Below, in pieces: positions 35,719-63,652 of a stretch of 64,000 bases of DNA. Each line of letters begins with the position of its first letter. The first letter of the stretch is position 1. The position numbers and the translations under genes are program-made. The DNA is from a virus, in IMG/VR virus record IMGVR_UViG_3300037852_000186, positions 1 through 64,000 of that record; one strand, written 5' to 3'. Under the pieces are notes generated by a model that worked only from the letters and a program-made list of their open reading frames with translations, was not told the DNA's origin and ran no database searches.

Positions 35719-35745
35719 TAGTATGTACTCCCATTGACTAAGTGC

Positions 35746-35774
35746 TTGACGGCGCGTCGATACCGTGCAAGACT
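35746..35774 (+). promoter_or_regulatory. Possible promoter for the antisense HNH gene
   Basis: TTGACG-17 bp-AAGACT (TG-extended), 9 bp before ATG 35784. Confidence 0.4.
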
Positions 35775-35783
35775 GTCGGTAGA

Positions 35784-36446
35784 ATGAACACATGCGCTGC
35801 CTGCCATCAAGAGAAACCCATCGTCGCTAAAGGTCTCTGCAAGCGCTGCTACAGCGCGCAATGGCGTGCTGAGCACCTTAACGCGGCTCGTGCCTATGCC
35901 GCCTCGTACCAGCGCGAATGGCGCGCTAAGCATCCTGAAGAGTACGCGGAAGCGGAACGCGCTCGGCACGCCCGTCGAGTTGCCGCCGATCCCGAAGGGA
36001 TGAAAGCTGCCGCTAAAGAGCGCAGCCACAAGCATTATTTGAATAACAAGGAAGACGTGAAAGAACGCGCCCGTCTTTGGCATTTGGCCAATATCGAAAA
36101 AGCCAGAGAAGCCTGTCGCCGCTGGCGCGCTGCTCATGGTCGTGAATGGTATTTGAAATGGAAAGCAGAGCATCCAGAAGAATACCAACAACACTCCAGC
36201 GCTCATCGCCTTCGTATGCGAATCGCCGAAGGGCATTTCACGGTCACAGATATCCAACGCATCTTCGTGGAACAAGGCGGTTTTTGCGCTAATCCAGCGT
36301 GCGACGAGTCGCTTGAAGCTGAGTACGATATCGACCACAAGATTCCGCTCAGTCAGCCAGGGACTAGCAACTGGCCGCACAACATTCAGCTTCTCTGTCC
36401 GCCCTGCAATGGTCATAAGGGAAATCGCATCGACCTCGGCTATTAA
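35784..36446 (+). CDS. HNH endonuclease (antisense to the late operon)
   Basis: GLCKRCY; helical basic repeats; DIDHKIPL...NIQLLCPPCN..KG. Confidence 0.88.
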   Translation: MNTCAACHQEKPIVAKGLCKRCYSAQWRAEHLNAARAYAASYQREWRAKHPEEYAEAERARHARRVAADPEGMKAAAKERSHKHYLNNKEDVKERARLWHLANIEKAREACRRWRAAHGREWYLKWKAEHPEEYQQHSSAHRLRMRIAEGHFTVTDIQRIFVEQGGFCANPACDESLEAEYDIDHKIPLSQPGTSNWPHNIQLLCPPCNGHKGNRIDLGY

Positions 36447-44162: not shown

Positions 44163-45146
44163 CTACGCCAGCCAGGGGCTGACTATCAATGTTGCGTCAT
44201 TCAGATAGATGTTGGACATCGGAATTGTGCTTATCGTTCCCGCCCCGAAGTTGCCATGCAGGAGTTGTGTCGCTACTTGCCTCAGCGATGGAGGCACAAC
44301 CAAGAATCGTGTATTGGGCGGCCCGCTCCACGCGCCGAACGGAATACCCGCATCAGTCTTAAACCCTTCTAATGCCGCAACGGCCTTTCCGTAGTTGACT
44401 GGATTGGTAAGGTCCTGATTGCTTGCGTAAGTCAACTGCCATAGTCCGACGCCGGCGTTGTAACGACCATCGACACCGTAGCGAAAGGTACGTTGATTAT
44501 AAACCGCCTCGTCAGTCAGGGCGTTCATATGAGTTACTGCGAACTCGCGGCGCTTCTGGAGAATGAACGAGCGAATAGGGCGATGGGCGTCTACCAGATA
44601 CCAATATACTCCGCTTCCGCCAGAGTCGATGTTGGAGACGGGGGTTGTCGGTCCAGTTGCGCTGGTTTGCCCCAGAAGCCCTACGGGATGGTTGGCGGAG
44701 TAGAGGTTCTGGCCGTCGTAACCAATAGGCACCGGAACGGTGATGTGGCCGATGGTTTGCGGAGCGTTAGAACTCGCTGCCTTCATCATGCCAAAGATTA
44801 GCTGATTCGGAAATAACTTCGCGTCCCAGCCGAGATTACGGATTGCCGGCCCGTAGACTTCGTATTCGTCGTCTTCGATTTTTTCACGCTCGATGGCAAT
44901 GGAATTTTCCCAGGTCTTATTGACGATGGTATAGGCTGTGGCTTCGAGTGCCTGATGCACGCGGTCGCCGATCCATTCACGAAAGCCAGTCGTCATCTTC
45001 AGCCAAGGATACATCTGTTGACCACTGCCGCTGGGCGCTATTGTAGTTAGGGGCTCATAGTCGGACGGCGCCATCTCGTAGCCTTGCTGGAAGATGGGGT
45101 CAAACGTGGTGAATAGAATGGTGAGGTTTTGAGCCGAAATTTGCAT
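44163..45146 (-). CDS. gpT: Mu-like major capsid protein
   Basis: Y.WL....FREWIGDR, Y.I.NK.WE..I.I.R..IEDD, YDGQ.....HP, RYGVD.R.N.G.G.WQL, LVVPPSL. Confidence 0.95.
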   Translation of the reverse strand: MQISAQNLTILFTTFDPIFQQGYEMAPSDYEPLTTIAPSGSGQQMYPWLKMTTGFREWIGDRVHQALEATAYTIVNKTWENSIAIEREKIEDDEYEVYGPAIRNLGWDAKLFPNQLIFGMMKAASSNAPQTIGHITVPVPIGYDGQNLYSANHPVGLLGQTSATGPTTPVSNIDSGGSGVYWYLVDAHRPIRSFILQKRREFAVTHMNALTDEAVYNQRTFRYGVDGRYNAGVGLWQLTYASNQDLTNPVNYGKAVAALEGFKTDAGIPFGAWSGPPNTRFLVVPPSLRQVATQLLHGNFGAGTISTIPMSNIYLNDATLIVSPWLA

Positions 45147-46896: not shown

Positions 46897-48714
46897 TTAC
46901 TGATCCTCCCCGGCGAGATAGGTTTCGACCGAGCGCGCCTTTTTGGCCGCGGCGAATTGCTCTACGGTAACTCCCAGCTTTCGAGTGACCATCAACTCCT
47001 GATGAGTTACGGCATTTTCGGGGGCTTCGCCGATTTGCCCCGTGAATTTGCCGTCAGCGCCGGCCGTGATAATTCTGGGTGCTTTATCAATGAAGGTTTT
47101 GAAGGCATCGGGATTTGTGGTGCAAAGAGTGATGCCCCAATCGCGCAACGAAGGTATCAATCGACCTTCGCGAATGCCTGCATCCACTTTTTGGATGGCC
47201 GCATCCTTTGCCCTTTCTGCCCGCAGATTATTTATTTCGGCCATCGCCTCGATCATTTGTGGGTCTTGCGCGACCAGTGCTGAAATTTCTGCCTTCGTCA
47301 TTTCCTTTTCTCGTTTGGGCACTCGGAGAAACTCACGCTTCATGGATTCTGGAAGCACAGCCACTGGTTTCTTCTCGGGCTCTTTGGTCATTTGCTGCGG
47401 TGGAGGCTTGCTAGCCATTTCTGCTCGTTTAGCGAATCGTTCTTTCTCGGCTGCGTGGCGAGATGTACAGGCGGCTTTTTCGTCGTCTGATGCGCACCGG
47501 GCCATTTCATCAGCCTGTCTCGCAGCCATCGCGTCTGCGCTTTCGTTGGCATAGGGATCTGCCCCTGGATTGGGTGCGGGCGCGGCGTACTGCGCCGCGT
47601 GCTCATCACCGTCTGGCTCCGCGTGTCCGTCGCCTTCGTCGCCGTCGGGCTCGCCATCAGGGTCAGGCTCCATCTCCATGAGGACGTGCTTCATGATTTG
47701 ATGATGCTCGGCGCCAGGCATAGCAGCCTCGAATCGTTTGACGATGTCGGATAGCTCTTCTTTCTTGCCACCTTCGGCCATTGTTGAATAAACCTCCGCA
47801 GCGGCTATCGCCGGCAGGCTCACGAGAGCGGGATTATTGGTGAGGGCCGCGCGCAAGATGCGCTCGACCTTGCCGTCTTTGTCGTGCTCGAAAACCGGCG
47901 AGATGTACCGGTAAAGCTTTTCTTTCAGCCCCTCGGCGGCCGCTTTGGTCCACTCGATGCGCGCAAAAATAGCCCCCGCCTCGACCTTGAAACCTTTTAT
48001 CCAACCAGCCGCAGGCGCAGGCCGGCCCTCGGGGGCAGCTAGATCGGTGGAGTGATCATAGTCAAGGACCAGCCCGACCTGTGGCATTTTCGCGATTGAG
48101 GCGGCGACGGTGCGAAAGGGATTGTCATTCTCGAAGGGGCCACGACCATCAACGGCGGAGAACTTGCCAGCGGGGATTATCTCTATCCACTCGGGCGCGT
48201 CGTCGCCGGGAATGGCGATGGTACACATCGCGATGCCAGCGCCGTTCTGAGTGAACCTTGGGGAGTGGATATAACAATTTTCAATAGGACAGGTAGTCAA
48301 TAAGGCGCTCGCTGGTTCCGCCGTCACCTTCGGAGTAGGCATCGGTCCTTCGTGCTTGATACCGAAGCGCTTTGCAGCGCTAATAATTTTGCTCCACGCG
48401 GACTTGGCCGCGCCTTCAGACGTGAAGTGAGTCTGCCCGAATCGAGCAAGCGCGTTGCGGACGTGCGCTGCGTCGCCTATCGGCAAGTGTTTTCCACCCT
48501 TTGGATCGGTCCAAGCATAGCTGCTTGTGCCGCTGCCTTCGGCGAAACGTGAGATGAGCCGTCTGACTGCTGCCGCCTCGCGCATGCGGCCAAAAATGTG
48601 CATGACCAGGGCGTAGAAGGAATCCCCTTTGAGATGAGGCGATGATTTGCGAGCGAGCTTCTTAGCACGTTGCCATTTACGCTCATCAGATGGAGTTTTG
48701 ACGACACCCGGCAC
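46897..48714 (-). CDS. Mu-like prohead protease I / scaffold with N-terminal extra domains
   Basis: PEWIE..PAG, DGRGP, LVLDYDH, APAAGWI, YRYISPVF, AALTNNPAL; helical scaffold C-terminus. Confidence 0.92.
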   Translation of the reverse strand: MPGVVKTPSDERKWQRAKKLARKSSPHLKGDSFYALVMHIFGRMREAAAVRRLISRFAEGSGTSSYAWTDPKGGKHLPIGDAAHVRNALARFGQTHFTSEGAAKSAWSKIISAAKRFGIKHEGPMPTPKVTAEPASALLTTCPIENCYIHSPRFTQNGAGIAMCTIAIPGDDAPEWIEIIPAGKFSAVDGRGPFENDNPFRTVAASIAKMPQVGLVLDYDHSTDLAAPEGRPAPAAGWIKGFKVEAGAIFARIEWTKAAAEGLKEKLYRYISPVFEHDKDGKVERILRAALTNNPALVSLPAIAAAEVYSTMAEGGKKEELSDIVKRFEAAMPGAEHHQIMKHVLMEMEPDPDGEPDGDEGDGHAEPDGDEHAAQYAAPAPNPGADPYANESADAMAARQADEMARCASDDEKAACTSRHAAEKERFAKRAEMASKPPPQQMTKEPEKKPVAVLPESMKREFLRVPKREKEMTKAEISALVAQDPQMIEAMAEINNLRAERAKDAAIQKVDAGIREGRLIPSLRDWGITLCTTNPDAFKTFIDKAPRIITAGADGKFTGQIGEAPENAVTHQELMVTRKLGVTVEQFAAAKKARSVETYLAGEDQ

Positions 48715-48970: not shown

Positions 48971-49201
48971 CTAGTCGCTCACTCTTTTGACGCTGCCTGG
49001 CTCGCTGTAGCACTTTTCGGTAGCGTGGATCGCTTTCAGCATTTCTAGAAACTCGGGACGAAGTCGCCGTAGAAGTTGTCGCGCGTCGAGTAATTCAGCG
49101 GCTATCGAGTTGACTTGATCGTCATCGGGTCCAGATATGAACGCGGCCGAATTTGGATCGCGCCATACTCGTAACTGGTCATCTGTGGGCCTGTCGATCA
49201 C
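48971..49201 (-). CDS. Hypothetical protein
   Basis: GTGA overlap with the upstream gene. Confidence 0.45.
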   Translation of the reverse strand: MIDRPTDDQLRVWRDPNSAAFISGPDDDQVNSIAAELLDARQLLRRLRPEFLEMLKAIHATEKCYSEPGSVKRVSD

Positions 49202-49791
49202 GCCGCCGCCTTCCCCTGAAACAGCGTCACCATCGCGTTATACATCCGGTCTTGAAAAATCGGCCCAACTTCTTCCATCGCGGGCCGCGCATAGGGGCGT
49301 TCGGGGATGCGAACGGATTTCTTCAGCGCGAACAGCGGCTGGTAACTGCCATCATCGTGTTTACCGAAGATGACGTTTTGTGCGGAGAACGTTCCACTAA
49401 ACCCGTAGCTTTCGGGAGACGAGATGACATCGCGCGCTGTTCCACGTGAAACACCGCGTCCAGTCAGCATCGCGGGCAGCGGAATCGTCAGGTTCGCAAC
49501 GTTCTTCGCGTTGACGGTGCCGCCGAATTCGTGAATCTGGGCGTAGGGTGCCGGCGAGCCGACCTTGCCCTCCATCGCGCCACCAGTCTCAACGACTGGC
49601 TCCATGACGATGTTTTCCAGGAGGCCCGTGCGGCGGGTAAACTGGCGGCTGATGTTCTCCTTCATGGCGCTGCGCAACAGCAACATCGCCGAGTTCAGCT
49701 CGCGACGCATGACGCGGCGCACTTCGGGGCTCGTCACAAAGTGGCCCTTGAGACGACTGCTGGCGACTATGGTGAGTGTCAGGTCTGCCAT
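49198..49791 (-). CDS. Phage virion morphogenesis protein (Mu gpG / HK97 gp10-like)
   Basis: RTG.L, VGS..PYA.IHEFGG, IPERPY.RP. Confidence 0.85.
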   Translation of the reverse strand: MADLTLTIVASSRLKGHFVTSPEVRRVMRRELNSAMLLLRSAMKENISRQFTRRTGLLENIVMEPVVETGGAMEGKVGSPAPYAQIHEFGGTVNAKNVANLTIPLPAMLTGRGVSRGTARDVISSPESYGFSGTFSAQNVIFGKHDDGSYQPLFALKKSVRIPERPYARPAMEEVGPIFQDRMYNAMVTLFQGKAAA

Positions 49792-49945
49792 TAAGTAAGA
49801 TTCATCTGGTTCATTCTTCGGGCGTCCGCACGTCCCTTGAGTCCAGATTCATGTTGAACAGCGAAAACAACACGTGTAAACTGAGCGAACGAAGATTGCA
49901 CATTGTTGATATGTATTGACGAATCGTTATAGCGGGGAGCGAGCT

Positions 49946-50119
49946 ATGCCGAGAGGAGAGGAAGGGCGGTGGCTATCGTTGAAAGAGGCCGCCGTGAAAT
50001 CGGACGTGTCGGTGGGTACGATGCGACGATGGATTAAACGTCAGGAGATTAAGGCGCGGAAGGTGGGCGGACTGTGGCGGATTCGGCCCGAGGATTTGGA
50101 GGCGAAGTGGAGGGAGTGA
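49946..50119 (+). CDS. Excisionase-like helix-turn-helix (HTH_17) protein
   Basis: WLSLKEAA...VS..T.RRWI...I.A.KVG..WRI..EDL; GGGGAG RBS. Confidence 0.85.
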   Translation: MPRGEEGRWLSLKEAAVKSDVSVGTMRRWIKRQEIKARKVGGLWRIRPEDLEAKWRE

Positions 50120-50433
50120 TGAATCCGATGCGAGCAACCGAAGCTGGTAGGGCATCAGACAGACGAGATAACGCACGCCGAAGGGCTGCGTTAAGTTCCG
50201 AACAGGCAACGCTGACAGCCGCCGAATGGACAGACATCCGCGAACGCCACAAATATCGCTGCCATTGGTGTAAGAAAAAGTTCAAACGCCTGACTCAAGA
50301 CCACGTTATCCCTTTGAGTAAAGGAGGGTTGCACGTTAAGGAAAACGTGGTTCCGTCGTGTCTTTCTTGTAATTCTGCGCGAGGTAATCGGCTACTACAC
50401 ATCAAGACTGGTCAATACTTACTCGCAGTCTAG
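50119..50433 (+). CDS. HNH endonuclease
   Basis: TGATG coupling to the HTH gene; CHWC...LT.DHVIPLSKGG.H...N.V.SC..CN. Confidence 0.88.
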   Translation: MNPMRATEAGRASDRRDNARRRAALSSEQATLTAAEWTDIRERHKYRCHWCKKKFKRLTQDHVIPLSKGGLHVKENVVPSCLSCNSARGNRLLHIKTGQYLLAV

Positions 50434-52058
50434 AACGTGCCGTGCTTTGGTAGCCCGTGTCCCCTCCGCCCGCTACTTCCCCACGCCCGTTCGCTGCCAC
50501 GATAGTCTTCCTCTAAGTCGCGCTGGCGCTGGGGATCATAAGCAACGGGGATTTGACTACCGGGGGTGATGTAGGCGTATTCCTGGCGCTGCCCTTGGTA
50601 GCTGGCATAAAGCGCGAGCGCGCCAGCAATCGCTGAGTCACCGTGGCGCATTCCGGCGCCGCTAGTTTCCTTCGACCTTGATTCTGGCACGCGAGCAACG
50701 CCCTTCTCCATGCGCAGCATCCGATGGTCTGCCAGTATATCGGCGTCCTTTGGCAGCGTTATCATGTCGTCCTCGAAGGCCGCCTTGTACTTCGGCATTT
50801 GTTCGCGATACCACTCGATGTTCATAACGACCGGCGTAATCAGCCCTGGCCGCTCCTTCGTACCGCCGTAGCGCAACCCCGCAACCTCTGCGAGAAACGC
50901 GCCGTTGCCCGAGGCGTCCATCGCGCCGCCAATGAAGCGCGTGCCGGCGCGCAGACGGTCTACTATCGTGAACAGAATCTCTTTCTGCTTCTCGTACTCC
51001 ACGTCGCGAAGCTCCACAACGAACGCCGTGCGCCGCTTCGTGTTCTGCTCAATCTGCAATACCCAAATAACCGTTAGGTCTCCGCTGCGACCGAAGTCAA
51101 CACCAAAAATCGACATTTGGTGAGGATGCAAAGTGCGCAGCGCCATATCCAGCCCCGGCCAGATTTGGTCTAACGCTGTGGGGCCTTTGCCGCGAAGTAC
51201 CGGGATGCCCTCGCGCATCTGGCGCTCGATTAGCGCGGCAGAGAGGAAGACACCGCCTGATTCGGATGGGATAACGAGAAGTTCTTCGTCCGCATTCTCT
51301 CGAAAGGTAGCGAACAGCTCCGCACGATACTGTGCTTCATTCTGAGAAGTCGGTTCTTCGTGACGAAGCGGCGCGGCCACACGCTGGTAGTATCCATCGG
51401 CTAAGGCATCGTCAATTGTGACCCTATGCAGCGAGTAGCTGTGCGACATTCGGCCAGCTCGGATATCTGTAACCAAAGTATTAAAAGGCGAGGTCGCGCC
51501 GTTGTGCGTAGAGATGATATGCACATGCCCACCAAGCTGAGTGAAAGCGAGAGCAGCTTTTAGTACGTCAGCTAAGCGGTCGTGAAATGCGGCCTCGTCG
51601 ATAATGACCAGCTCCCCAGGACGGCCCCGCGAACGGATAGAACGTGCGCGAGAAGTTAGACCATAGATTTTGTGCCCCGAAGCAAATTCAACATGGTATG
51701 CGTAGACCGACTCATGCGCCTCGTCGTCCTGCTCCCAAAGTGTCTGCCCAGCTTGGCGTGCCTGCGCGTTTAGAGTAATCGCCCATTCTTTAACGTCGTG
51801 GTCAATCCACGCACGGGCCGCCTCGAAGTTATAAACCATATAGAAAACATCAGCCCCATCTTGACCCGCAGCATTAAGGACTGCCCGCGCCGCTTCTGCC
51901 CAGCTTATTCCCACTCGGCGACTTTTTTCGCAGACAACGATAGGGTGATCGTCAGCAAGGAAGCGCTTCTGATAGTCAAGCAGGATGTTGCCCAAGGATG
52001 GGCTCGGTTGAGGAATAGGCGGTAACTGGACGAGCTTAGGGCTTGGCTTTGGCGGCAT
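50430..52058 (-). CDS. terL: Terminase large subunit (Mu gp28-like)
   Basis: LL.YQ, EKSRRVGISW (Walker A), VIIDEAAFH, ISTHNG, GVDFGRSGDL, MDASG.G, HGD.A.A. Confidence 0.95.
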   Translation of the reverse strand: MPPKPSPKLVQLPPIPQPSPSLGNILLDYQKRFLADDHPIVVCEKSRRVGISWAEAARAVLNAAGQDGADVFYMVYNFEAARAWIDHDVKEWAITLNAQARQAGQTLWEQDDEAHESVYAYHVEFASGHKIYGLTSRARSIRSRGRPGELVIIDEAAFHDRLADVLKAALAFTQLGGHVHIISTHNGATSPFNTLVTDIRAGRMSHSYSLHRVTIDDALADGYYQRVAAPLRHEEPTSQNEAQYRAELFATFRENADEELLVIPSESGGVFLSAALIERQMREGIPVLRGKGPTALDQIWPGLDMALRTLHPHQMSIFGVDFGRSGDLTVIWVLQIEQNTKRRTAFVVELRDVEYEKQKEILFTIVDRLRAGTRFIGGAMDASGNGAFLAEVAGLRYGGTKERPGLITPVVMNIEWYREQMPKYKAAFEDDMITLPKDADILADHRMLRMEKGVARVPESRSKETSGAGMRHGDSAIAGALALYASYQGQRQEYAYITPGSQIPVAYDPQRQRDLEEDYRGSERAWGSSGRRGHGLPKHGTF

Positions 52059-52575: not shown

Positions 52576-52766
52576 CTAAAGATATTCTGCCGCATATCGG
52601 ACCTTCGTAAGTAGTACCTGGCGGATCACGTCTTCAATCTGAAGCTTCGACATTCCATAGTCAGACGCCATTTGTTCCAAGGAATCTCTGCGCATGAATC
52701 GCGCAACGATGCGCGCATTGCGGTCCCGCAGGCGTTGGACCGTATCATCAGTCGTTGTGTTTACCA
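52576..52766 (-). CDS. Small HTH-like protein
   Basis: RN..I......SLE.MA..YGMS...I..VIR; GGGAGG RBS. Confidence 0.55.
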
Positions 52767-53263
52767 TTGCGTCCTCCCAGCAGCTCCGCGCGCTTATCAT
52801 TAATGGTCAGCGGCTCGCGGCGCACTGGCTGAACCTCGATAGAGCGCTCGTCGGTCGGTTGCGCCGCTTGCAATTGATTGAGCAGGGTCTGGCGGAGCAA
52901 CGAGACGAGGTCGGAGGATAGACCAGCTTGGCGTATCGTTTGGCTCGGGGTTTCGGACTCGGAGGGCTTCGTCCAGCCGCACCGCCGTTCGAGAAAGAAA
53001 GCTTTGTCAGGGAATGAACCGGCCAAGGCGTCTTGAACTAAACGGTCTGATACTAGAGATTCAATCTCGGCTTTTCCTTTTTGTAAGGCTTCCGCAAAAT
53101 GCGCATAATCACGTTTCCGTTGATAGAGAGTCGTAAGAGAAATATCAAGCACACTAGCGATTTTCTCTTGGGTCAGCCCCCGCCCAGCAAGCGTCCTTAC
53201 TTGCGCTAGATCGGGGGGTTCCCATCGCGGTCTGCCTCTTGGGCGTTTAACTTCAGTATCCAT
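52748..53263 (-). CDS. Terminase small subunit-like HTH protein
   Basis: GRP, LA..GLT...IA..L.IS..TLY, F.EAL.KGK, FFLERR.GW; upstream of terL. Confidence 0.75.
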   Translation of the reverse strand: MDTEVKRPRGRPRWEPPDLAQVRTLAGRGLTQEKIASVLDISLTTLYQRKRDYAHFAEALQKGKAEIESLVSDRLVQDALAGSFPDKAFFLERRCGWTKPSESETPSQTIRQAGLSSDLVSLLRQTLLNQLQAAQPTDERSIEVQPVRREPLTINDKRAELLGGRNGKHND

Positions 53264-54260: not shown

Positions 54261-54751
54261 CAGTTCGGCAATTCCTTCTCTGCGTGCGCCGCCATCTCGT
54301 CGCCTGCCCGCAACTCCGCAATCAACTCGTCTTCGCTGGCGTAGGCATGCAAAGCGTGCGAGAAAATGCGGCCCGAGGGATCACGAAAGGCTACCCAAAG
54401 ATCGGCCATCGAAGAGAAGCCGTCGGGCGAAATGCCGATAACGTCGTCGCAGCCGACTGTCCCGTCGTCGTGCTCGGGACAGGGTTCGGTGGTGTGTTCA
54501 ACGCGCCATGCAATGATGCGAACGGAGAAGAGTTGACCGTCGAGCCAGCCGAGATTCCACCAGCCGTGTTCGCGGGGTAGGACGGTTGCGGGTTCTTTCT
54601 TTTTCAAAGCAGTTCTCCTTGTTGCGTTAGTGTCCCATTCCGCGCGATTGCCCGTACTCTCGGCTACGCCCATATTTATAATCATCGTCCTCGAAAGATC
54701 CCACTTTCGGGCTTCCGTCATGCTCGTATGTGGGCGTCGGCGTGAGGCCAA
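54260..54751 (-). CDS. Hypothetical protein (start uncertain, probably near 54630)
   Basis: 5' part overlaps the relaxase. Confidence 0.4.
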   Translation of the reverse strand: MASRRRPHTSMTEARKWDLSRTMIINMGVAESTGNRAEWDTNATRRTALKKKEPATVLPREHGWWNLGWLDGQLFSVRIIAWRVEHTTEPCPEHDDGTVGCDDVIGISPDGFSSMADLWVAFRDPSGRIFSHALHAYASEDELIAELRAGDEMAAHAEKELPN

Positions 54752-55577
54752 TTCCTAGCTGCAAGTCGCGTTCTTTCCATTGCTGTTTAAGATAATTCAT
54801 GTCGAAGGTTCCGCGCGCACGACGGTCAATGACCGATGCTAAGTTCGCCGCGTGTGGATGCCAACCGTGCGCTGAGATAATCTGCTCGATTTGTTCTTTA
54901 CGCTGCGAGAATGCACGGATATGAAGGCGGTCGTATCCAGCTAATTCCCATTCGCCTTTCGCGCTGGTGGTTTTGATGTCGTACCCCAATTGCTTAACGC
55001 GATACTGCATCTCCTCTCGATAGACGTTAGTGCCTTGCTGGCTGTGTCGAAAGATCTGGTATTTGTCGAGCGCTCGCCACTCACCATCCGGACGCTGCGT
55101 CATGTTCATTAGAACAACGTGCGTGTGAACTTGCGGATCGGGCAGTTGCAGACCAACTGGTCGTGCGAGCGTGTGCTGGAAGGATGCTGCCACGAGCTTG
55201 CCAGTAATCGTAGAGTATTGACCGTGATGACTCACCATCGCATAGCGTTCCATGTGGTAGAAGGCTGCTTCTGCTGCGGCAGCATGCGCTGGAATCAGCC
55301 GCTCGTCTCCGCGTACAAGGGCCTGAATCGAAATGGACTTGGGAGCAGAGTACCCTACTTGCCAGCCGGCGCGGTGTTCCGTCCCTTCGCGAGTCGCAAC
55401 AAGCAACCCCCCGAATGGACTATAGCCACGGAGCGCGCAGCCAAAATCAAATCCATTAGCACGCGCGTCGCCGATCAATCCGAGGCTCTCGGCACCATGT
55501 CCAATCCACTGACCGACTTCGTTGATGAAATATCTTTGCGTTCCCGTTGCGGTCAGTGGCACTGGCGAGATCGTCAT
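54627..55577 (-). CDS. trwC: MOB_F (TrwC/TraI-type) relaxase, relaxase domain only
   Basis: G.W.G.GA..LGL.G, SAPKS.S, FQH..AR...DPQVHTH.V..N, DG.WRAL, FSQR..QI; C-terminal RGMG tail. Confidence 0.92.
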   Translation of the reverse strand: MTISPVPLTATGTQRYFINEVGQWIGHGAESLGLIGDARANGFDFGCALRGYSPFGGLLVATREGTEHRAGWQVGYSAPKSISIQALVRGDERLIPAHAAAAEAAFYHMERYAMVSHHGQYSTITGKLVAASFQHTLARPVGLQLPDPQVHTHVVLMNMTQRPDGEWRALDKYQIFRHSQQGTNVYREEMQYRVKQLGYDIKTTSAKGEWELAGYDRLHIRAFSQRKEQIEQIISAHGWHPHAANLASVIDRRARGTFDMNYLKQQWKERDLQLGIGLTPTPTYEHDGSPKVGSFEDDDYKYGRSREYGQSRGMGH

Positions 55578-55595
55578 CAAGTGGGGCAACACCTC

Positions 55596-56183
55596 CTAGA
55601 ATAGAGTGATACGCCTAGAACCTTTCGCGGAATTGCAAGGCCGACAGGCAGCAACCACGTTTTCTTTAACGTGCAAACCACCCTTGCAAAGTGGAATTAC
55701 ATGGTCCATCGTAAGGCGTTTGCATTTTTTCTTGCACCAGTAACAGCGCCCCTTCGCTCGCGATAAAATCGCGCGCCATTCACTCCTAGCTAGAGTGGTT
55801 ACGGGGGTTGCATATTTTCTAGCTCGCCGCCGTTGGTCATCTATTACGCGTTGTTCTTTGTTACGATCCGAACTGCGATAAATCAGAGAGCGTAAGGAAT
55901 GCTTACGCCATGTATTGAAATATAATCGTCGCGGAGCGGTGGCGTTGTAATGTCGACGAGTGGATACGCCTTTTGGTGAAGACCTGTATCGTTTTCTGGT
56001 TAAGACTCCGCGTTGCGATTGACCGTATCGTTGCGCTGCACGAGCCCAGCTTTGCTTAGTCGCGATTATCTTACAGGCTGGACAAAATGCTGGTCTCCTA
56101 AGTCCTTTTGTAATGACGACTGCTGGAGCTTGGCATCGAGGACAATCTCTTAATAGACCTGGAAATATACTTTCACCTGGCAT
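55596..56183 (-). CDS. HNH endonuclease
   Basis: CYWCKKK.KRLT.DHVIPL.KGGLHVKENVV..C..CNS.KG. Confidence 0.88.
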   Translation of the reverse strand: MPGESIFPGLLRDCPRCQAPAVVITKGLRRPAFCPACKIIATKQSWARAAQRYGQSQRGVLTRKRYRSSPKGVSTRRHYNATAPRRLYFNTWRKHSLRSLIYRSSDRNKEQRVIDDQRRRARKYATPVTTLARSEWRAILSRAKGRCYWCKKKCKRLTMDHVIPLCKGGLHVKENVVAACRPCNSAKGSRRITLF

Positions 56184-56189
56184 ATTGTT

Positions 56190-57941
56190 TTATCGAGGCA
56201 AGAACCCCGCGATGTTTTGAATCATATGTGCCTCCTCGATCTTAATTGGCGCGCGGTCACGACCAGCGCAACAGAGATAGCCGTGGAAGCGTTCAAGGAG
56301 AAGCAATTCCGCTGGCGTAACCAAATGACGGCTGAGCCGATGCGGCGCGAGATTCAGCCCTTCCCGATAGTCGCTAACACCCGTGACCATCGTAGTATCG
56401 AAACGATCCGCTTCTTGGCTGTTTAATACTTTGCTCGCCCATTCTGCTGTTTCGGCTCCTCCACATTGCAAGATGACTTTAGTCGCCGCACCGTTGGTGA
56501 GCACGCTTGCTTCATCGCGTCCGTAAATTCGATTAAGCTGGGCGACATCCTGAAAGCCGAGGTATACAGCGATGCCCCTCTTTCGCCCCCGCGCGATAGC
56601 CTTCTCAACATTGCTCTGGTGACCGAGACTCGGAAGTTCGTCGAGCATAACATGAACCCGTTGAGTATAAGTTTCTTGAAACATTAGCCATCTAATCAGT
56701 GTGTCGATCCAAATGGCTTGCAGGGGAAAAAGGGCGTCCTTAGTGTCTTCACTAGAAGTGAGGAAAATCCATCCTTCTGGTTTAGCCGCCCATTCGCGAG
56801 CACTCCACGTGCGCGCGCCTTGTGTCGGTAAATGATAGAACGGTTTGAGTGCGTTCGACGCGGTCGCGACGATTCCAGAACCTTGGTCGTGTGCTTGCGG
56901 ATCGATTAGGTTATACGCAGCATCTGTGAGCACGCCTCGATTGGCTCGAAACTGTTTCTGCATCTCGATACGCGGCATCGCAAGAAATGAGTGCAAGGCT
57001 GGAATGTCCCTCGCTACTGCGAAGATACCTTCAATCAAAGTACGCGCTGATAGACGGAAGAATTCACCTGAGTCGCTAGCAGCTCCTCTCGGATTCGGTC
57101 GAACAAGAGAAGCAGCCATCGCTTGTACATCAACCTCGAACATGGTGGGCCGGAACTCGAACCAAGGCGTCCATCTCAGATCGTAACGCTGGTCGAATGG
57201 ATTGAGAATGATGTCGCTCGGCTTGTAGAACTCTTGAACAAATTCACAATCAGGATCGAAAATAACCGCGATTTCTCCACGCTGCCGAATCTGTCGGAGA
57301 AGATGACGAAGAATAGTAGACTTGCCCATGCCAGATTTGCCAGCGATAAGCATGTGCTCGGTTTCGATGTTAGGTTCTAGGGTGACATCACCGATACGCA
57401 GCCCGGTTGATACGGGCGCCTTGGGTGTGACGTACGGGCGGACTCGCTGCCAGTATGAACGCCATCCGTGTATCCGATAGTTAAGCGCGGACGCTGAAAT
57501 CATTTGAACTCCTCGAATGTGTTGCAGCTCCTTTGCGCTTCGTTGTGCGAAGAGTGCAACTCCAATGATTGCGATTGGCGGTAACAGTGGCCAGCCCCAA
57601 CAAGATTGTACACACCACGCCGGAAAGCTTTGATGATAGCCGGCTGGACCGGATAGCCATGCACTCAACGATCCAAGTTCATACCATTGTCTGTTGAAGG
57701 GGACGGGCGCATTGGTGAGGTATGTACCGACAAATGGAATATTCGCGATCAAGCTGTACGGCGCCCACGACCAGAAATATACATGATGTAACAGTGGATA
57801 AGTTCTTCGCCACACAACGATAAGCGTGCAAACTACCCAAGCCAGCAGCGCACCACGGAAGATTTTGCTCCATATACTGCTGGCCATCCGACCCATAATT
57901 CCGACGGCTTGTAGTCGCGCAATTCCAGCCGAATATGCCAT
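56190..57941 (-). CDS. traD: Type IV coupling protein (TraD/TrwB family)
   Basis: N-terminal TMs, H.RG, Walker A GKSGMGKS, FDP..EF, NPFD.R, Walker B LDELPSL, GRK.G, QL..IYG. Confidence 0.92.
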   Translation of the reverse strand: MAYSAGIARLQAVGIMGRMASSIWSKIFRGALLAWVVCTLIVVWRRTYPLLHHVYFWSWAPYSLIANIPFVGTYLTNAPVPFNRQWYELGSLSAWLSGPAGYHQSFPAWCVQSCWGWPLLPPIAIIGVALFAQRSAKELQHIRGVQMISASALNYRIHGWRSYWQRVRPYVTPKAPVSTGLRIGDVTLEPNIETEHMLIAGKSGMGKSTILRHLLRQIRQRGEIAVIFDPDCEFVQEFYKPSDIILNPFDQRYDLRWTPWFEFRPTMFEVDVQAMAASLVRPNPRGAASDSGEFFRLSARTLIEGIFAVARDIPALHSFLAMPRIEMQKQFRANRGVLTDAAYNLIDPQAHDQGSGIVATASNALKPFYHLPTQGARTWSAREWAAKPEGWIFLTSSEDTKDALFPLQAIWIDTLIRWLMFQETYTQRVHVMLDELPSLGHQSNVEKAIARGRKRGIAVYLGFQDVAQLNRIYGRDEASVLTNGAATKVILQCGGAETAEWASKVLNSQEADRFDTTMVTGVSDYREGLNLAPHRLSRHLVTPAELLLLERFHGYLCCAGRDRAPIKIEEAHMIQNIAGFLPR

Positions 57942-58149
57942 TTATAGTTTCGCCTTTTGTTTGTGAGGGTGGGTTAGACGCGAACGGATTCAGGCATAGT
58001 TCCTTGCCAACATAACGCTCCGTCATTCGCCTAACGAAGAGCTGTTTCGCAAGGACTATGACTGCACATCACCAATACTAATTGCCCCGACGTTAAGGGA
58101 TCTGTAATCGCGCCTTGGGGGAGGGTTTACAAAGTTGGCGCGTACCATT

Positions 58150-58557
58150 TCAGATAACCCCAGCAAAGGCCAAGCACACAATATTGACGAGAAACCAGCC
58201 GACAAAAAAACGAAGCGGCCAGTGTCCCTCGGCTCTGACGACGAGGTCAATTAGCAGTGCGGTAGGAATGATCGCCCAAGGTGGATGAGCCGTGCAAAGC
58301 CAGTACAACCAGACCGCAACCAATAGAATTCTGAGCTTGCCATAGAACGGATTGCCGTAGCGATCTCGGGTTATCCACCATCGTGGGAAGCGGTTTAGGA
58401 AGATGCTTGTCCATGAGTGAGATGCGATTTGGATGGTGGTTTTTCCCCGGTTCGGCAGCTTGTCCTGCTCGTTCCATTCATGGAGGCAGTCAGCCCATCC
58501 CTGCTCGTGACCACGGTAGTAGGATCGTTCGTCGGTATCCGTCCAGCTTGGGTTCAT
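58150..58557 (-). CDS. Hypothetical membrane protein
   Basis: C-terminal TM segments; ATGA overlap. Confidence 0.5.
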   Translation of the reverse strand: MNPSWTDTDERSYYRGHEQGWADCLHEWNEQDKLPNRGKTTIQIASHSWTSIFLNRFPRWWITRDRYGNPFYGKLRILLVAVWLYWLCTAHPPWAIIPTALLIDLVVRAEGHWPLRFFVGWFLVNIVCLAFAGVI

Positions 58558-59102
58558 TCGGGACTCCTAATGTGAGGAATTCGCAGCGCTTCCAAGTAAG
58601 TTTTCATGTAATCGGCGTCACGTTCGCTGAGGATTCGGATAGCTGCTTGAACGGGGCCGCCAAACAAAACAGCGACAACCGCGAGATGCCAGTTCAGGTT
58701 CATCAGGGCCCACAATCCTAAGAGCATGGTGATGCTGATATTGATCTGGGAGAGTTCCCGTTCGCCGCCCATGAGGAGCTTGTCTTTTTGCAGACAGGTA
58801 AAAACCCTATGTCCAGAGCCGCTGTGCCCACTGGTGGAAGGTGATGGCGTGCTGCCGATGGATGTTGCGAGCTTGCCCTTTGGGCGTTGGACGGGTGGTC
58901 CATACTGGCGTTTTTGAACTTGGGACTTTGTAGGTTCTGGAATCAATGCGCCAGTTGGAATGGCTGGTGGAGGACTAACCGCTGGTGCCGGCGCGAGTGG
59001 TCGCGGTCTCCCACCGGAGAGTTCCCAGTTGTCCGCTGGAATGCCATCCCCGCTGCTAGCCCATGCCTGATTTCCTAAGTAATGATCGCCTCTGTCGTAC
59101 AA
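58554..59102 (-). CDS. virB3: VirB3/TrbD-like protein with a Pro-rich N-terminal extension
   Basis: L....LLMGGEREL + two TMs + D..Y...Y; start uncertain. Confidence 0.72.
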   Translation of the reverse strand: MYDRGDHYLGNQAWASSGDGIPADNWELSGGRPRPLAPAPAVSPPPAIPTGALIPEPTKSQVQKRQYGPPVQRPKGKLATSIGSTPSPSTSGHSGSGHRVFTCLQKDKLLMGGERELSQINISITMLLGLWALMNLNWHLAVVAVLFGGPVQAAIRILSERDADYMKTYLEALRIPHIRSPE

Positions 59103-59122
59103 TGAGCGAGTCCCCCTATTTA

Positions 59123-59596
59123 TTAGCTGGCATTACCGATGTTGGCCTTGAGGCGATGATACCGTCGGTTCGCAGCAGCTCTGTGGCAAACGCTGCATCT
59201 TCGGTGTCCCGTTTTTTTGTTGACTATATCGAGCGGATGGCCATGTATGCAGAGGCCATTGCGTATAGGTCTTCGGCCAGCAATTTGTTCTTTCGGTGTT
59301 GCCCACCTACAATTTGACGGTTCATAGTTACCGTTCGGATCTGGATACCGGTCTAACGTCTTGCCTACTGGCCGTTCATTCATATCAGCTAGAAAGTTGG
59401 CAAAGTCGCTCCATCGTTCGCAGATAGTTATGCCCCTCCCTCCATAAAGATCGTAATGGACATGTTTAGGATTGAGACAACGTTCCCGCATGTGAACCCA
59501 GCTTCGATAAGTGGGTGTGTCTGTATGTCGATGTGTGCTACGGCCCATTATTACCCCTATCATGCGGCTTGTGGTTGCCCCCTGCCCGTAAGCCAC
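59123..59596 (-). CDS. HNH-type endonuclease (YGGRGI family)
   Basis: Y.SW..M..RC, YGGRGI.ICERW..F.NFLADM, TLDR...NGNYEP.NCRWAT. Confidence 0.9.
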   Translation of the reverse strand: MAYGQGATTSRMIGVIMGRSTHRHTDTPTYRSWVHMRERCLNPKHVHYDLYGGRGITICERWSDFANFLADMNERPVGKTLDRYPDPNGNYEPSNCRWATPKEQIAGRRPIRNGLCIHGHPLDIVNKKTGHRRCSVCHRAAANRRYHRLKANIGNAS

Positions 59597-61962
59597 ATCT
59601 CAAGAAAATCTCCGCCTTGCTCCAGCAGTTGCCGCGCCGCCTGTACGTCCTGATACCCCGTAGAAGCACAGATTTTCTGCCCAGTCGGCCCTAATGCTAA
59701 GGTGAACATTCGAGACCCGATAGACGACTTAAAGTAGTAATCCTGTCGCGCTACAGCGTTCCCTATACGATTAAGCTCATGATCGTTGAGACCTATCTGG
59801 GTGTAGGCTTCGCGCACATAGGTGCTACTACGCAGGGCCGAATTCGGCAGGAAAATTTGCGCTGGCGCACTCTCCAATAGCAACGGCCCAAAGGGGCTGT
59901 TCACTATTTCCCCGGCCGATTGGGTAGCGCCAACGAAGCCACAATTGCGCTTGCGCATGGTCCGTATGGAGTCGAAGAGCCATTCCGCTGAGACTTCATC
60001 TCCGAGCATGTTCCAGAATTCGTCAGCAAATATCCAAGCAGGGGACACGCCGTCTAATGATGAAACGATCGAGTGCAGGATGAGTTCGGTTGCGGGCGCC
60101 GAAGCCCGCTTACCGAGACCTTGAAGTCCGCGCATCTCGAATACACGGAGTTGAATGTCGGCGTCAGTTTGGGGCTCGCCGTTAAAAATGTGCTTCCAGT
60201 AAGTGGTGTAGTGTCGAAGGATTCGACGGATGCGTTGTTGTTCGCCAGGGATAATCGCGAACAGTCCGCTCATGGTCCGAATGCCTTGACGTTGTGCTTG
60301 GCGAAGTCGAGAGGCGAACTCTTCGGATTGGTATTCGTCGAGTTCAAATTTACCGACACCATAATCTCCCGGCCATCGAGCAAAAAGTCGTTCAAACCAA
60401 CCAAAGAGCCATTCGACGCCGTCTTCCTTGTCGAGCATGGCCAGTGGGCAGAGGGCTGGAGTATTCTGAGCGCCCATATCCCGGTAGTCTATCCCGAGTA
60501 GATGGGATAGCACGAAGGACGAGTAATCGAGGTCGAGCCATGCGATCCTGACTTTGGGTATTCCGAGGTAGGCGCAGACCATAGCGGCGATAAGTGAGCT
60601 TTTGCCACTACCCACGGGGCCCAGGATAAGCTGATTGGCGACTCCACCGATATGAGTTGGGAAATAAAAAGGTTCCGAGCCTGTGCCACCACAAACCAAT
60701 GGCGCTGGCGTTTGTGCAGGCAGCATAGGGCTGTGAATATAGGGAGTTCCTTCCCAATATTTTGCGGGTATCGCCAGGTCTGCGAAGTTCTCACCAGTGA
60801 GCGGAATCTTGTGGCGGTTGGCCTCGTGCTCGTCCGACCTCATCGTCAAATAACCTGGCAAAGTGGTCCTAATTGCTTTGGCCGCGCCGATGGTTTCTGG
60901 GCGACACATGACGCCCTTTCCTTGCAGGAGACCTATGAGGGTGTGCATGCGGTAGTCGGCCTCTGCGGGGTCGCGGTCGCGAACGATAGCAACACATCCT
61001 ACGGTGCCAAAGCTGGTGCCGTCCTTAGAAGCGTTGATAGCTTCTTGGATTTCCGCGATCTGCTCGTAGGCATGCTGAGTGTTTTCTTTCTTGGCGCCAA
61101 AGAAGGACTTGATGATTTCGATGAAGTCGCCGATGGCCGTTTGATTCCAAAACGGTTTTTCTTTTTCAAGCTTCTTTTGGGCATCGTAGGGGCTGAGGCA
61201 GCGGTAACGAATGCTGAGGGTGAGATAACCGGGATGCTGCAAGAGGATAGAGAGCATCTGGGGTAGGGTCTCGCTCGGGTATGCGGTAATGACGATGGGT
61301 CGAAGGTGCCAGCCGTTTATCACGGGATAGAGGCCGTTTACTTGCCATTCGCAGGCGATGGCCTGGTTGAGTCGGACGTGAGGCTCGGGAAGCACAGCGG
61401 GGTAATCGTGGTAGGTGACGAGATGGAGGAGATCGCGGAACATCTCAAGGTTCGACATGGGTTCGAGTCCGACAGCGCCCTTGACTGCGTCCTCGATAGC
61501 CTGAAAGCGGCCGAGCGCGTGCGCGCGAAGCAAGTCGTGGTTGCTCAAGTGCTGCGGCTCGTTTCCCCCGAGGAGGATAGCTCGAACCGTATTCTTGATG
61601 GGCGGCCCGAACTGATGGGAAAGATAGAGACGGGTCGGGGTAATCCAGTGTTCTTCGGCCGCGAACCGCTCGCGGATCTCGGCCATGACAAGCGCGGCGG
61701 CAGGACGCGCGTAGTGTAGGTCGGGCGGCAAGGGTGCTGGCTGACGGTCGAAGACGACTTGAATGGCGTCGCCGGTACGCAAGTGGACTGGTGACCTTCC
61801 GAATTGTTCGGCGCGAGCCAGAAGCTTGGCCGCGTCGTCCGAATCGGGCGATGGGCCGATGAGCCGATAGCCTTTGACGATGCCGTTATCGCGCTCGTCT
61901 ATCACGCCTTCGTGGCCTTTGAGGAATTGACGGTATGGAAGTGAGTCGGCTAGTGTGGCCAT
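59560..61962 (-). CDS. virB4: VirB4/TrbE ATPase
   Basis: L.D.LPY, GP..DS, Walker A GPVGSGKS, ADEFW, T.RK.N....ATQS, IFLPN; GAAGGTGA RBS. Confidence 0.93.
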   Translation of the reverse strand: MATLADSLPYRQFLKGHEGVIDERDNGIVKGYRLIGPSPDSDDAAKLLARAEQFGRSPVHLRTGDAIQVVFDRQPAPLPPDLHYARPAAALVMAEIRERFAAEEHWITPTRLYLSHQFGPPIKNTVRAILLGGNEPQHLSNHDLLRAHALGRFQAIEDAVKGAVGLEPMSNLEMFRDLLHLVTYHDYPAVLPEPHVRLNQAIACEWQVNGLYPVINGWHLRPIVITAYPSETLPQMLSILLQHPGYLTLSIRYRCLSPYDAQKKLEKEKPFWNQTAIGDFIEIIKSFFGAKKENTQHAYEQIAEIQEAINASKDGTSFGTVGCVAIVRDRDPAEADYRMHTLIGLLQGKGVMCRPETIGAAKAIRTTLPGYLTMRSDEHEANRHKIPLTGENFADLAIPAKYWEGTPYIHSPMLPAQTPAPLVCGGTGSEPFYFPTHIGGVANQLILGPVGSGKSSLIAAMVCAYLGIPKVRIAWLDLDYSSFVLSHLLGIDYRDMGAQNTPALCPLAMLDKEDGVEWLFGWFERLFARWPGDYGVGKFELDEYQSEEFASRLRQAQRQGIRTMSGLFAIIPGEQQRIRRILRHYTTYWKHIFNGEPQTDADIQLRVFEMRGLQGLGKRASAPATELILHSIVSSLDGVSPAWIFADEFWNMLGDEVSAEWLFDSIRTMRKRNCGFVGATQSAGEIVNSPFGPLLLESAPAQIFLPNSALRSSTYVREAYTQIGLNDHELNRIGNAVARQDYYFKSSIGSRMFTLALGPTGQKICASTGYQDVQAARQLLEQGGDFLEMWLTGRGQPQAA

Positions 61963-62387
61963 ATTTGAGTCACCTTCCCTGCTACAAGACTGAGCGGTAA
62001 CCAACATAAATACCGACTGTCCCAACTGTCTGGGTCGTTCGTACCCATACCGAGAAACATCTCAGGCGGTACGGTGTAGCTGCCGAATGGGCAGACCCGC
62101 GCGAGTCTGGGCTCCGGGGCGCTATTCGGTATCAGTTTGCCCTCGCGGTACACGCCTTCGGGCGCGAACCGCACGTGATCGCCCGGTAGGGCGAGCGCTC
62201 TTTTAATTGGCATCCGCAGCAGCACGAGGTCGCCATAGCGCACCTTGGCGATTGGCTTGATTCGATAGACGCCGACTGGGGTCGCGCTATCGGAGACGTT
62301 GAACGTAAGGTTCCCCATCAACAGAAGGACTAGGCCGCCAAACAGGACCAGGCGAGTTGGGAACCACTTGAGGAGCGTTGTAAACAT
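61950..62387 (-). CDS. traF: TraF-type S26 conjugative signal peptidase
   Basis: N.S.S.TP.G.Y (Ser), IKR..ALPGD (Lys), SWDSRY. Confidence 0.85.
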   Translation of the reverse strand: MFTTLLKWFPTRLVLFGGLVLLLMGNLTFNVSDSATPVGVYRIKPIAKVRYGDLVLLRMPIKRALALPGDHVRFAPEGVYREGKLIPNSAPEPRLARVCPFGSYTVPPEMFLGMGTNDPDSWDSRYLCWLPLSLVAGKVTQIWPH

Positions 62388-62739
62388 TTGGTTTCTCTTC
62401 CCGGTTGTCAGCGCCGGCCCCGGTACGAATAGCCGTTAGGTAGCGCTGTAGAACCTCATTTGCTGCCTCGATACAGGGCTGGCAGGGGGTTGGCTTCGCC
62501 TTGGGGGTTGGCGTGGCTTGTAGGGGCGTTATCGGCAGTATTTTGGTTAGCGAAGGCGTGGGGATAGGGCTTGGCGCCGCTTGGAAGTGCGTGACTGGCA
62601 CCTCGGGGATCGAGGCGTTGGCGTGCCAGAGATGCGGCCAAATGATGATGCCAAGGAATACGCTAATGATGAAGCCAATCCCGATTTTCGCAAGTCGCCG
62701 ACTAACTTTAGTGCCCGGTGCGTTAGTATTGGTGTTCAT
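62287..62739 (-). CDS. VirB10/TrbI-like N-terminal fragment (TM + Pro-rich linker + helix); no TrbI beta-barrel domain
   Basis: Position after VirB9 and architecture only; 3' end overlaps traF by about 100 nt. Confidence 0.45.
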   Translation of the reverse strand: MNTNTNAPGTKVSRRLAKIGIGFIISVFLGIIIWPHLWHANASIPEVPVTHFQAAPSPIPTPSLTKILPITPLQATPTPKAKPTPCQPCIEAANEVLQRYLTAIRTGAGADNREEKPNVYNAPQVVPNSPGPVWRPSPSVDGEPYVQRLR

Positions 62740-62948
62740 TGCGGCGCCACCGTTGCTAAACACTGAATGTAATAGTTGCCATTCGGCTCCTGCCGAAGTG
62801 TGCCGTAGCCGGATGGGCATTGCGGATAGGTTTGCACTTGTGCCTGCGGGTTGGCTTGGTTGTGGAAAGTCTGGACTTGGGAATATGTTGAGGTCCCTAA
62901 ACCAACCGCGCTAAGCAGCATGCCAAAAATGCTTATGATTGCACTCAC
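62736..62948 (-). CDS. Small exported Gln-rich protein
   Basis: Hydrophobic N-terminus, one Cys pair; GGAGGTGA RBS. Confidence 0.55.
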   Translation of the reverse strand: MSAIISIFGMLLSAVGLGTSTYSQVQTFHNQANPQAQVQTYPQCPSGYGTLRQEPNGNYYIQCLATVAPQ

Positions 62949-62959
62949 CGAATCACCTC

Positions 62960-63652
62960 CTACGGAGCTTGCTGTCCTGCTTTGATAGCCGCATCGCGCG
63001 CCGCCGCCTGCGCCTTAACCAAACCTGGGTAGTAGAATTCGATTGCTTGCGTGAAATTTTTCGTGCCTTTTATTTCCTTCACGGGATTAAATACGTAGTT
63101 ATTGCCAGCAGATGTCTGAATGGCCAAATTTGTAACCATGTCAGGCTCTGCCGGAATTCTGACTGGCGCACCGGGGACCGTGATAGCTGTAGTTGAGGCC
63201 AACGGAAAGACCAGTACGCTATGCTCCCCGACGATAGTGCCCCATCGTTCACGGTCACCGATTTTTACATTGTCCTTCGATGTAGTTTCATCGTCGCGCA
63301 GGCGGATTTGCGTTACGTGTAGCTTTTGGCAATTGAGCGGATATGCAACGTCGGGACTGTAGGGATAGATCACGGTTATCCCGTGCTGTAAAGTTGGGGT
63401 CTGATTGTGCTTGATTGCCTCCGCCACGTCCGACGATAGGGAAGCATACGGATCTGGGATCGGAACCGGCGTAGGCGCCGGCGTCGGGACTATGACTGGT
63501 GCTGGCGGTGGAGTAGCAGCGCACCCGGTAAACAGACCGACTCCTATAACCAACGCAGTAATTCCGAAAAGAAAAACAAGCGCAGCGCAAGCACGTTTGT
63601 TGATCACCGTTGAACCTCCCAAGCGTTCTGCTGTAGGAATTCTTGTTCTCAT
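62960..63652 (-). CDS. virB9: VirB9/TrbG family protein, N-terminal domain only
   Basis: YPY...Y..C....VT.I.L, IGD..RW, TNL.I.T, F.YP; lipobox-like FTGC; ends about 20 aa after FYYP. Confidence 0.78.
   Translation of the reverse strand: MRTRIPTAERLGGSTVINKRACAALVFLFGITALVIGVGLFTGCAATPPPAPVIVPTPAPTPVPIPDPYASLSSDVAEAIKHNQTPTLQHGITVIYPYSPDVAYPLNCQKLHVTQIRLRDDETTSKDNVKIGDRERWGTIVGEHSVLVFPLASTTAITVPGAPVRIPAEPDMVTNLAIQTSAGNNYVFNPVKEIKGTKNFTQAIEFYYPGLVKAQAAARDAAIKAGQQAP

Follow-up and report, generated by a model that had tools for sequence, protein, structure and literature searches.

The portal gene expected between terL and the gpG-like gene is missing from that junction in the viral record IMGVR_UViG_3300037852_000186, and we conclude from comparative sequence analysis that this is most likely a gene-order variant of a whole clade rather than a loss. 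Judging from its relatives, the element very probably does encode a portal, in sequence that was not assembled. A clade-wide relocation of the portal and MuF genes, a truncated contig and a selfish cassette at the old junction together form an explanation that we hold with good confidence. The finding is a lineage-specific rearrangement of a known module, viewed through a truncated contig, together with an ordinary HNH cassette.

Layout of the virion module

The record is a linear fragment of 99,974 bp without terminal overlap, rated 100% complete by CheckV; its first 64 kb constitute the window, meaning the whole stretch of DNA presented here. For comparison, we relied chiefly on the two closest virion modules found, referred to as G008 (IMGVR_UViG_3300021560_000020; 59,179 bp, rated 98% complete) and G001 (the 37-kb provirus IMGVR_UViG_3300022557_000250). 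The Mu head and packaging module, which comes in types such as BcepMu, RcapMu/RC1 and D3112, is ordered gp27-gp28-gp29-gp30-G-I-T.

Nearly all genes of the window are carried by the minus strand, where the order is terS, terL, a gpG-like gene, a 76-aa ORF, the I gene, two ORFs of about 255 aa and the gpT capsid gene, followed by the gp36 and gp37 neck proteins, sheath, tube, tape measure, hub and baseplate J. The element is a Mu-headed, contractile-tailed phage, and its virion genes other than the absent block, covering head, neck, tail and packaging and including MuF, gp36 and gp37, are intact long ORFs. The terminase small subunit (52748-53263, minus strand) was recognized by phrog_309 (terS, 2.7e-17) and has an HTH N-terminus with a weak HTH_7 match. 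The large subunit is a full-length Mu gp28-type terL (50430-52058, minus strand; PHROG terL, 2e-30) with a probable true start at 51995, giving 521 aa; it has 4825 homologs, the best at 52-54% identity and named FluMu gp28-like, and can be aligned end to end with 23 relatives. Next comes the gpG-like virion morphogenesis or tail-completion gene (49198-49791, minus strand), which scored above the cut-off for HK97-gp10_like (PF04883, 27.2 bits), matched phrog_5 (tail completion/Neck1, 6.7e-10) and fell below the threshold for Phage_tail_S (PF05069, 0.0026); close homologs of this gene are absent from G001, G006 and G008.

The Mu I-type head protease/scaffold (46897-48714, minus strand; PF10123, 1.2e-55; phrog_328, 6.7e-66) is extended at its N-terminus by an additional domain (DUF6582) of some 170-200 aa. 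This extension is common to the I proteins of G001 (608 aa) and G008 (585 aa) and is not found in those of the canonical loci L004 and L006 (~385 aa). The extended I protein occurs together with a relocated portal. Pfam matches identify the Mu gpT-type major capsid protein (44163-45146, minus strand; PF10124, 4e-77) and the Mu gp47-like baseplate J (11-1381, minus strand; PF04865, 2.5e-48). The interval from the hub (25668-26711) to J spans about 24 kb (window 1381-25668) against about 2 kb for G008 and some 12 kb for G001, which points to a lineage-specific expansion of the tail region; its ORFs include products of 1016, 649, 1233, 873 and 1129 aa, and many have signal peptides or an extreme pI.

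Portal searches and a MuF gene at the far end of the record

The sequence-only reading had proposed that a portal be sought by profile across the whole contig, and a six-frame search of all 99,974 bp with the Mu-type family PF06074 (Portal_Mu/DUF935) recovered none. The HK97 (PF04860), SPP1 (PF05133) and portal-MuF fusion (phrog_2662) families likewise gave no portal in a six-frame search of the record, the last profile matching solely through its MuF part (98266-98718). Profiles built for this purpose behaved in the same way: an HMM made from 62 portals encoded right after terL in relatives reached a best E-value of 2.6 on the record, and HMMs from the four nearest portals and from 14 clade portals gave no match there, the best E-value of all three custom profiles lying above 1.7. 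As positive controls, the portal profiles recovered the G001 portal at 308.6 bits and the portal of locus L236 at 1e-120 (phrog_113).

A Pfam and PHROGs scan of all record ORFs of at least 300 aa found none that was portal-like. The unannotated ORFs in this size class were dismissed as candidates, as they are mostly secreted, very basic or hydrophobic products of the tail region or have clade homologs whose position is not that of a portal; those without an assigned family role are a 322-aa ORF (phrog_19005, unknown function) and a 357-aa ORF at 71588-72661. Two further candidates were rejected. The ORF at 39733-40638 matches phrog_209 and phrog_490, whose "portal" labels are wrong in this case, since it is a Gp37 tail terminator (PF09646). 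The possibility that the portal is divided between two neighboring ORFs of 254 and 259 aa was also considered, but homologs of the 254-aa ORF sit between I and T in relatives that bear a normal portal.

Both the portal and gpF had been reported missing by the sequence-only reading. For the window this stands, as PF04233, searched in six frames, detected no Mu F there either. For the element it stands only in part: the record contains no portal, but it does encode a MuF-like head morphogenesis protein outside the window (record 97318-98769, corresponding to L002:15318-16769; minus strand), 1.2 kb from the record end opposite baseplate J. The gene was recognized by PHROG head-morphogenesis and head-protein families (3e-16 to 9e-23) and scored below the PF04233 threshold (21.9 versus 29.6 bits) because an intein splits the MuF domain. 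This intein of about 265 aa lies inside the conserved C-terminal HPxCxC motif (HPN|C...HN|CVC), and alignment with four intein-less homologs places HPN|intein|CVC at their HxxCxC motif; when it is removed, the family HPxCxC motif is restored. The profile matches and this motif place the protein in the Mu F/SPP1 gp7 family. At 51% identity (E 5e-55), the closest homolog of the N-extein is the intein-less 198-aa MuF of L236, which directly follows a clade portal. Within the intein, on the opposite strand, is a 256-aa ORF with an HTH-like N-terminus (L002:15474-16244, plus strand) that had no match in the PHROG search. Read along the minus strand, this far end has an HNH gene (99591-99935), then a pair of small ORFs on the plus strand that includes another HNH gene, and finally MuF.

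Portal position in relatives

Synteny was compared through terL on the one hand and through the virion genes on the other. The first comparison drew on 80 viral contigs that encode a related terL, at 40-50% identity; there a Mu portal of about 500 aa comes next after terL at a median gap of about 80 nt, and after the portal come F and/or G, then I and T. The nearest terL relatives are therefore canonical, which bears out the expectation of a terL-portal-F-G-I-T slot. Relatives of baseplate J are much closer, at 70-80% identity, and every one of them continues beyond J with a conserved gene of 287-319 aa and then with fiber genes. The G001 copy of this conserved gene scored 21.8 bits for Tail_P2_I against a cut-off of 20.6, and one of the G001 fiber genes matches Gp53-like_C.

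In G001, as well as in G002 and L095, a PF06074 portal follows J on the same strand at a distance of 6-7 kb; the G001 protein, of 486 aa, matches the family at 7.7e-92. We collected 140 loci around relatives of this portal. Wherever a portal at least 66% identical to that of G001 had enough upstream sequence, the order was J, an Ig-like protein, fibers and portal (12 of 12 loci), with the portal starting 5.8-9.3 kb downstream of the J stop in L172-L175, L238 and L244. Besides these six, five loci that do not extend as far as J likewise have the Ig-like tail gene immediately before the portal. Roughly 90 loci with portals at most 59% identical to that of G001 are arranged as terL-portal-I-T-sheath. 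Some clade portal ORFs carry C- or N-terminal extensions and measure 557-702 aa (L236:1642-3750, L235:10001-11884, L234:678-2351 and L175:9461-11500).

The G008 record, which shares 60-72% identity with the window in capsid, sheath, tube and J, shows the same arrangement from its two ends. Toward the record end its order is I-T-neck-sheath-tube-TMP-hub-J-319aa-339aa-965aa, and from the record start it reads 508aa-HNH-portal-82aa-MuF (477 aa)-early genes. In G008, terL is encoded on the other strand at a distance of 2.6 kb from I, and neither a portal nor an HNH gene adjoins it. Of the fates that had been suggested for the portal, relocation is thus strongly supported by the synteny of the closest relatives, in all 12 informative loci and in G008, and the position of the portal after the fibers in the closest virion relatives argues against loss.

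The HTH-HNH cassette at the junction

The gap between terL and the gpG-like gene measures 638 bp (49792-50429), in agreement with the roughly 640 bp given by the sequence-only reading, and the antisense excisionase-like HTH plus HNH cassette described there was recovered as a two-gene operon on the plus strand, antisense to both terL and the gpG-like gene. The first gene encodes a 57-aa DNA-binding protein of the HTH_17 (MerR/excisionase) type (49946-50119; PF12728, 48.6 bits, E 1e-12; six-frame match at 49970-50104), and the second a 104-aa single-domain HNH endonuclease (50119-50433; PF01844, 43 bits, E 5e-11; PF14279, 41 bits). A purine-rich ribosome-binding site precedes each of them, and the TGA stop of the HTH_17 gene overlaps the ATG of the HNH gene as ATGA. 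The HNH gene is convergent with terL, their stop codons overlapping by 4 nt. Its product displays the motif CxxC...DH...N...CxxC, with the catalytic H...N and the (CxxC)2 zinc site of an HNH endonuclease, and its best solved relative is 4H9D (112-aa zinc HNH, E 9e-9), described as a Mn-dependent nickase of that length (PMC3765158). Its closest relative overall is a paralog in the same element, a zinc ribbon plus HNH protein (55596-56183, minus strand; PF14279/PF01844) encoded between the coupling protein and the relaxase, with 55% amino acid and 74% nucleotide identity. The divergent intergenic region that separates the operon from the gpG-like gene (49792-49945, 154 nt) shows no consensus sigma-70 promoter, terminator or significant repeat.

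The excisionase-like gene had been taken as a hint of a recombination scar. HTH_17 is a generic MerR/excisionase-type fold, and the cassette protein does have the fold of an excisionase; its linkage is a different matter, as the only integrase (a tyrosine integrase, 90872-92020, minus strand) lies 40 kb away. The excision-scar reading is without support and was rejected, given that the HTH gene is coupled to an HNH gene, that the integrase is so distant and that other HTH_17 sequence lies by the integrase. No repeats or att-like scars beyond chance flank the cassette. A weak, partial HTH_17 match (92142-92204, minus strand) in a 78-aa frame directly upstream of the integrase would be the better-placed excisionase candidate, and a strong HTH_17 gene is also present at 75616-75762 (minus strand).

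We regard it as reasonably likely that the cassette is a selfish element of the free-standing homing-endonuclease type, its homing being presumed. This rests on the presence of at least seven HNH genes and an intein in the record and on the absence of the cassette from relatives: none of the 64 terL relatives has a counterpart at this junction, and no homolog of the cassette was found anywhere in about 310 fetched related loci. Like free-standing phage HNH homing endonucleases, it combines an HNH core with sporadic insertion between conserved genes, and here too several paralogs occur per genome, alongside an intein in a structural gene; unlike them, it seemingly relies for DNA binding on a separate, coupled 57-aa HTH_17 protein rather than on a fused domain. 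We also considered whether the 3' flank of terL is a hot spot for homing endonucleases and rejected this, as the gaps in the 64 relatives are mostly below 250 nt and the larger ones lack an HNH gene. The HNH-type genes are scattered over the virion, conjugation and end regions, with five in the window (1381-2043, minus; 35742-36446, plus; 50119-50433, plus; 55596-56183, minus; 59123-59596, minus) and further ones outside it (record 98816-99247, plus; 99591-99935, minus), which indicates a genome heavily colonized by selfish nucleases.

HNH genes occur widely beside terminase genes and cos sites, where they can be essential (PMC12967558, PMC3592412), and the cassette HNH could in principle be a packaging accessory nuclease that aids end cutting by the terminase, as in the HK97 gp74, staphylococcal cos-phage or Skunavirus HrdP type. 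In its size, its single zinc HNH domain with a (CxxC)2 site and its direct adjacency to terL, it does resemble HK97 gp74, GVE2 HNHE and Skunavirus HrdP (PMC12967558). It differs from them, however, in being encoded on the strand opposite to terS and terL and coupled to an HTH_17 gene, beside a terminase of the Mu gp28 type rather than the HK97 type. It is not part of a terS/terL transcription unit by a cos site that is conserved with the same terminase: none of the 64 terL relatives has an HNH gene at the junction, none adjoins the G008 terL, and its closest relative is the paralog in the conjugation module. We therefore consider a packaging role, the main alternative for the cassette, unlikely.

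Contig ends and a probable unassembled late-operon segment

The record starts only 10 nt past the stop codon of baseplate J, and with no terminal overlap this means that the late operon breaks off at the end of the contig. The genes that follow J in relatives are missing as well: neither P2-I-like nor fiber proteins have a counterpart in the record, where the P2-I-like HMM reached a best E-value of 3.2, PF10076 found no match, and PF09684 gave one weak, sub-threshold match containing a stop codon. Because P2-I, fibers and portal lie between J and MuF in relatives, the portal is probably located in the missing segment. When the last 36 nt of the record were matched exactly against viral and metagenome collections, no overlapping contig was returned, and near-identical DNA was absent from every fetched locus.

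A true loss would imply that the portal, P2-I-like and fiber genes were deleted from an otherwise intact 50-kb virion module and that the element spreads through its own type IV secretion system and relaxase or with a helper portal. The lack of a portal across the full record length, the CheckV completeness of 100 and the location of relaxase, coupling protein and VirB3/4/6/9 genes next to terS are all compatible with such a state. Yet the absent genes form one contiguous block in relatives that falls exactly between the two contig ends, a coincidence that loss leaves unexplained; no terminal overlap shows circular closure; and the remaining virion genes are intact, including MuF, gp36 and gp37, which need a portal. 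The completeness value is itself probably a saturated estimate, since relatives measure about 60 kb against a contig of 100 kb. We consider a true loss very improbable. Neither of the further options raised by the sequence-only reading is needed, be it a portal lost with DNA transfer handed to conjugation or one borrowed from a helper phage, as the record is a truncated contig that is also without the baseplate and fiber genes encoded between J and the portal in relatives.

The conjugation genes themselves (window 54627-63652 and record 63649-65311) lie directly upstream of terS on the same strand and comprise a TrwC relaxase, a TrwB/VirD4 coupling protein, VirB3, VirB4, a VirB9-like protein and VirB6/TrbL. 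No homolog of any of them is present in G008, which indicates that the conjugation module was added in this element.

A misassembly at 49.8-50.4 kb, through omission of a portal-MuF segment or fusion of two strains, might be suspected from the metagenomic origin of the record and the slightly lower GC of the cassette (0.51-0.56 versus 0.58-0.62 in the flanks), but it is the least credible of the readings and can be set aside, as neither cassette gene is disrupted, both having ribosome-binding sites and meeting in an exact stop/start overlap, the adjoining ends of terL and G are likewise intact, no flanking repeats could cause a mis-join, clade relatives independently lack a portal beside terL, and MuF is present elsewhere in the same contig.

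A model for the rearrangement and its relation to known systems

The relocation that we favor may have proceeded from an ancestor with the order terL-portal-(F/G)-I-T. In the ancestor of the clade, portal and MuF would have moved as a block to the end of the late operon, and in the clade the block now stands at its far end, after J, the P2-I-like gene and the tail fibers. In the present element terL and G-I would have stayed collinear while the HTH-HNH cassette was gained at the old junction, and in G008 the terL block would additionally have been inverted. HNH genes flank the portal-MuF block both in G008 and here, a possible hint of endonuclease-associated recombination; the window's HNH gene at 59123-59596 has a homolog directly upstream of the portal in G008. 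The two ends of our contig would border a single unassembled segment of about 7-11 kb with the P2-I-like, fiber and portal genes. Within the cassette, it is probably the HTH protein that directs the minimal HNH nuclease to its DNA targets.

Set against the Mu-like module, the element retains the gp28-type terL, the I protease/scaffold, the gpT capsid, the gp36 and gp37 neck proteins and a G-like protein, and its relatives add a PF06074 portal and a MuF protein. It departs from that module in that the clade places portal and MuF after the tail fibers rather than between terL and G, and in that this element also carries a tyrosine integrase and type IV secretion genes. With G008 and G001 it shares the virion module at 66-68% identity for the capsid, 60-79% for the sheath, 72-77% for the tube and 64-80% for J. 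Both of them, in contrast to the present record, include the stretch with the portal after the fibers, and neither has the HTH-HNH cassette or a G-like gene; G008 further differs in its oppositely oriented terL and the lack of a type IV secretion homolog. Neither for the clade portal nor for baseplate J do deposited phages exceed about 40% identity, and in the three top portal matches with an annotated neighbor the portal abuts terL. Given these limits of identity and the portal position by terL where a neighbor is annotated, we regard the arrangement as modestly new.

Implications

The apparent portal-less phage with conjugative transfer is most likely an artifact that arises where an unusual gene order coincides with contig truncation, and it illustrates that a CheckV rating of 100% on a linear contig can mask the absence of a hallmark gene. 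For any claim of a phage-conjugation hybrid, this means that the virion module of the element is probably complete. More broadly, the analysis points to an uncultured Mu-headed clade, represented by many JGI Ga-numbered and other public metagenome contigs, in which portal and MuF have moved to the end of the late operon; adjacency of terL and portal is therefore not obligatory for the Mu head type.
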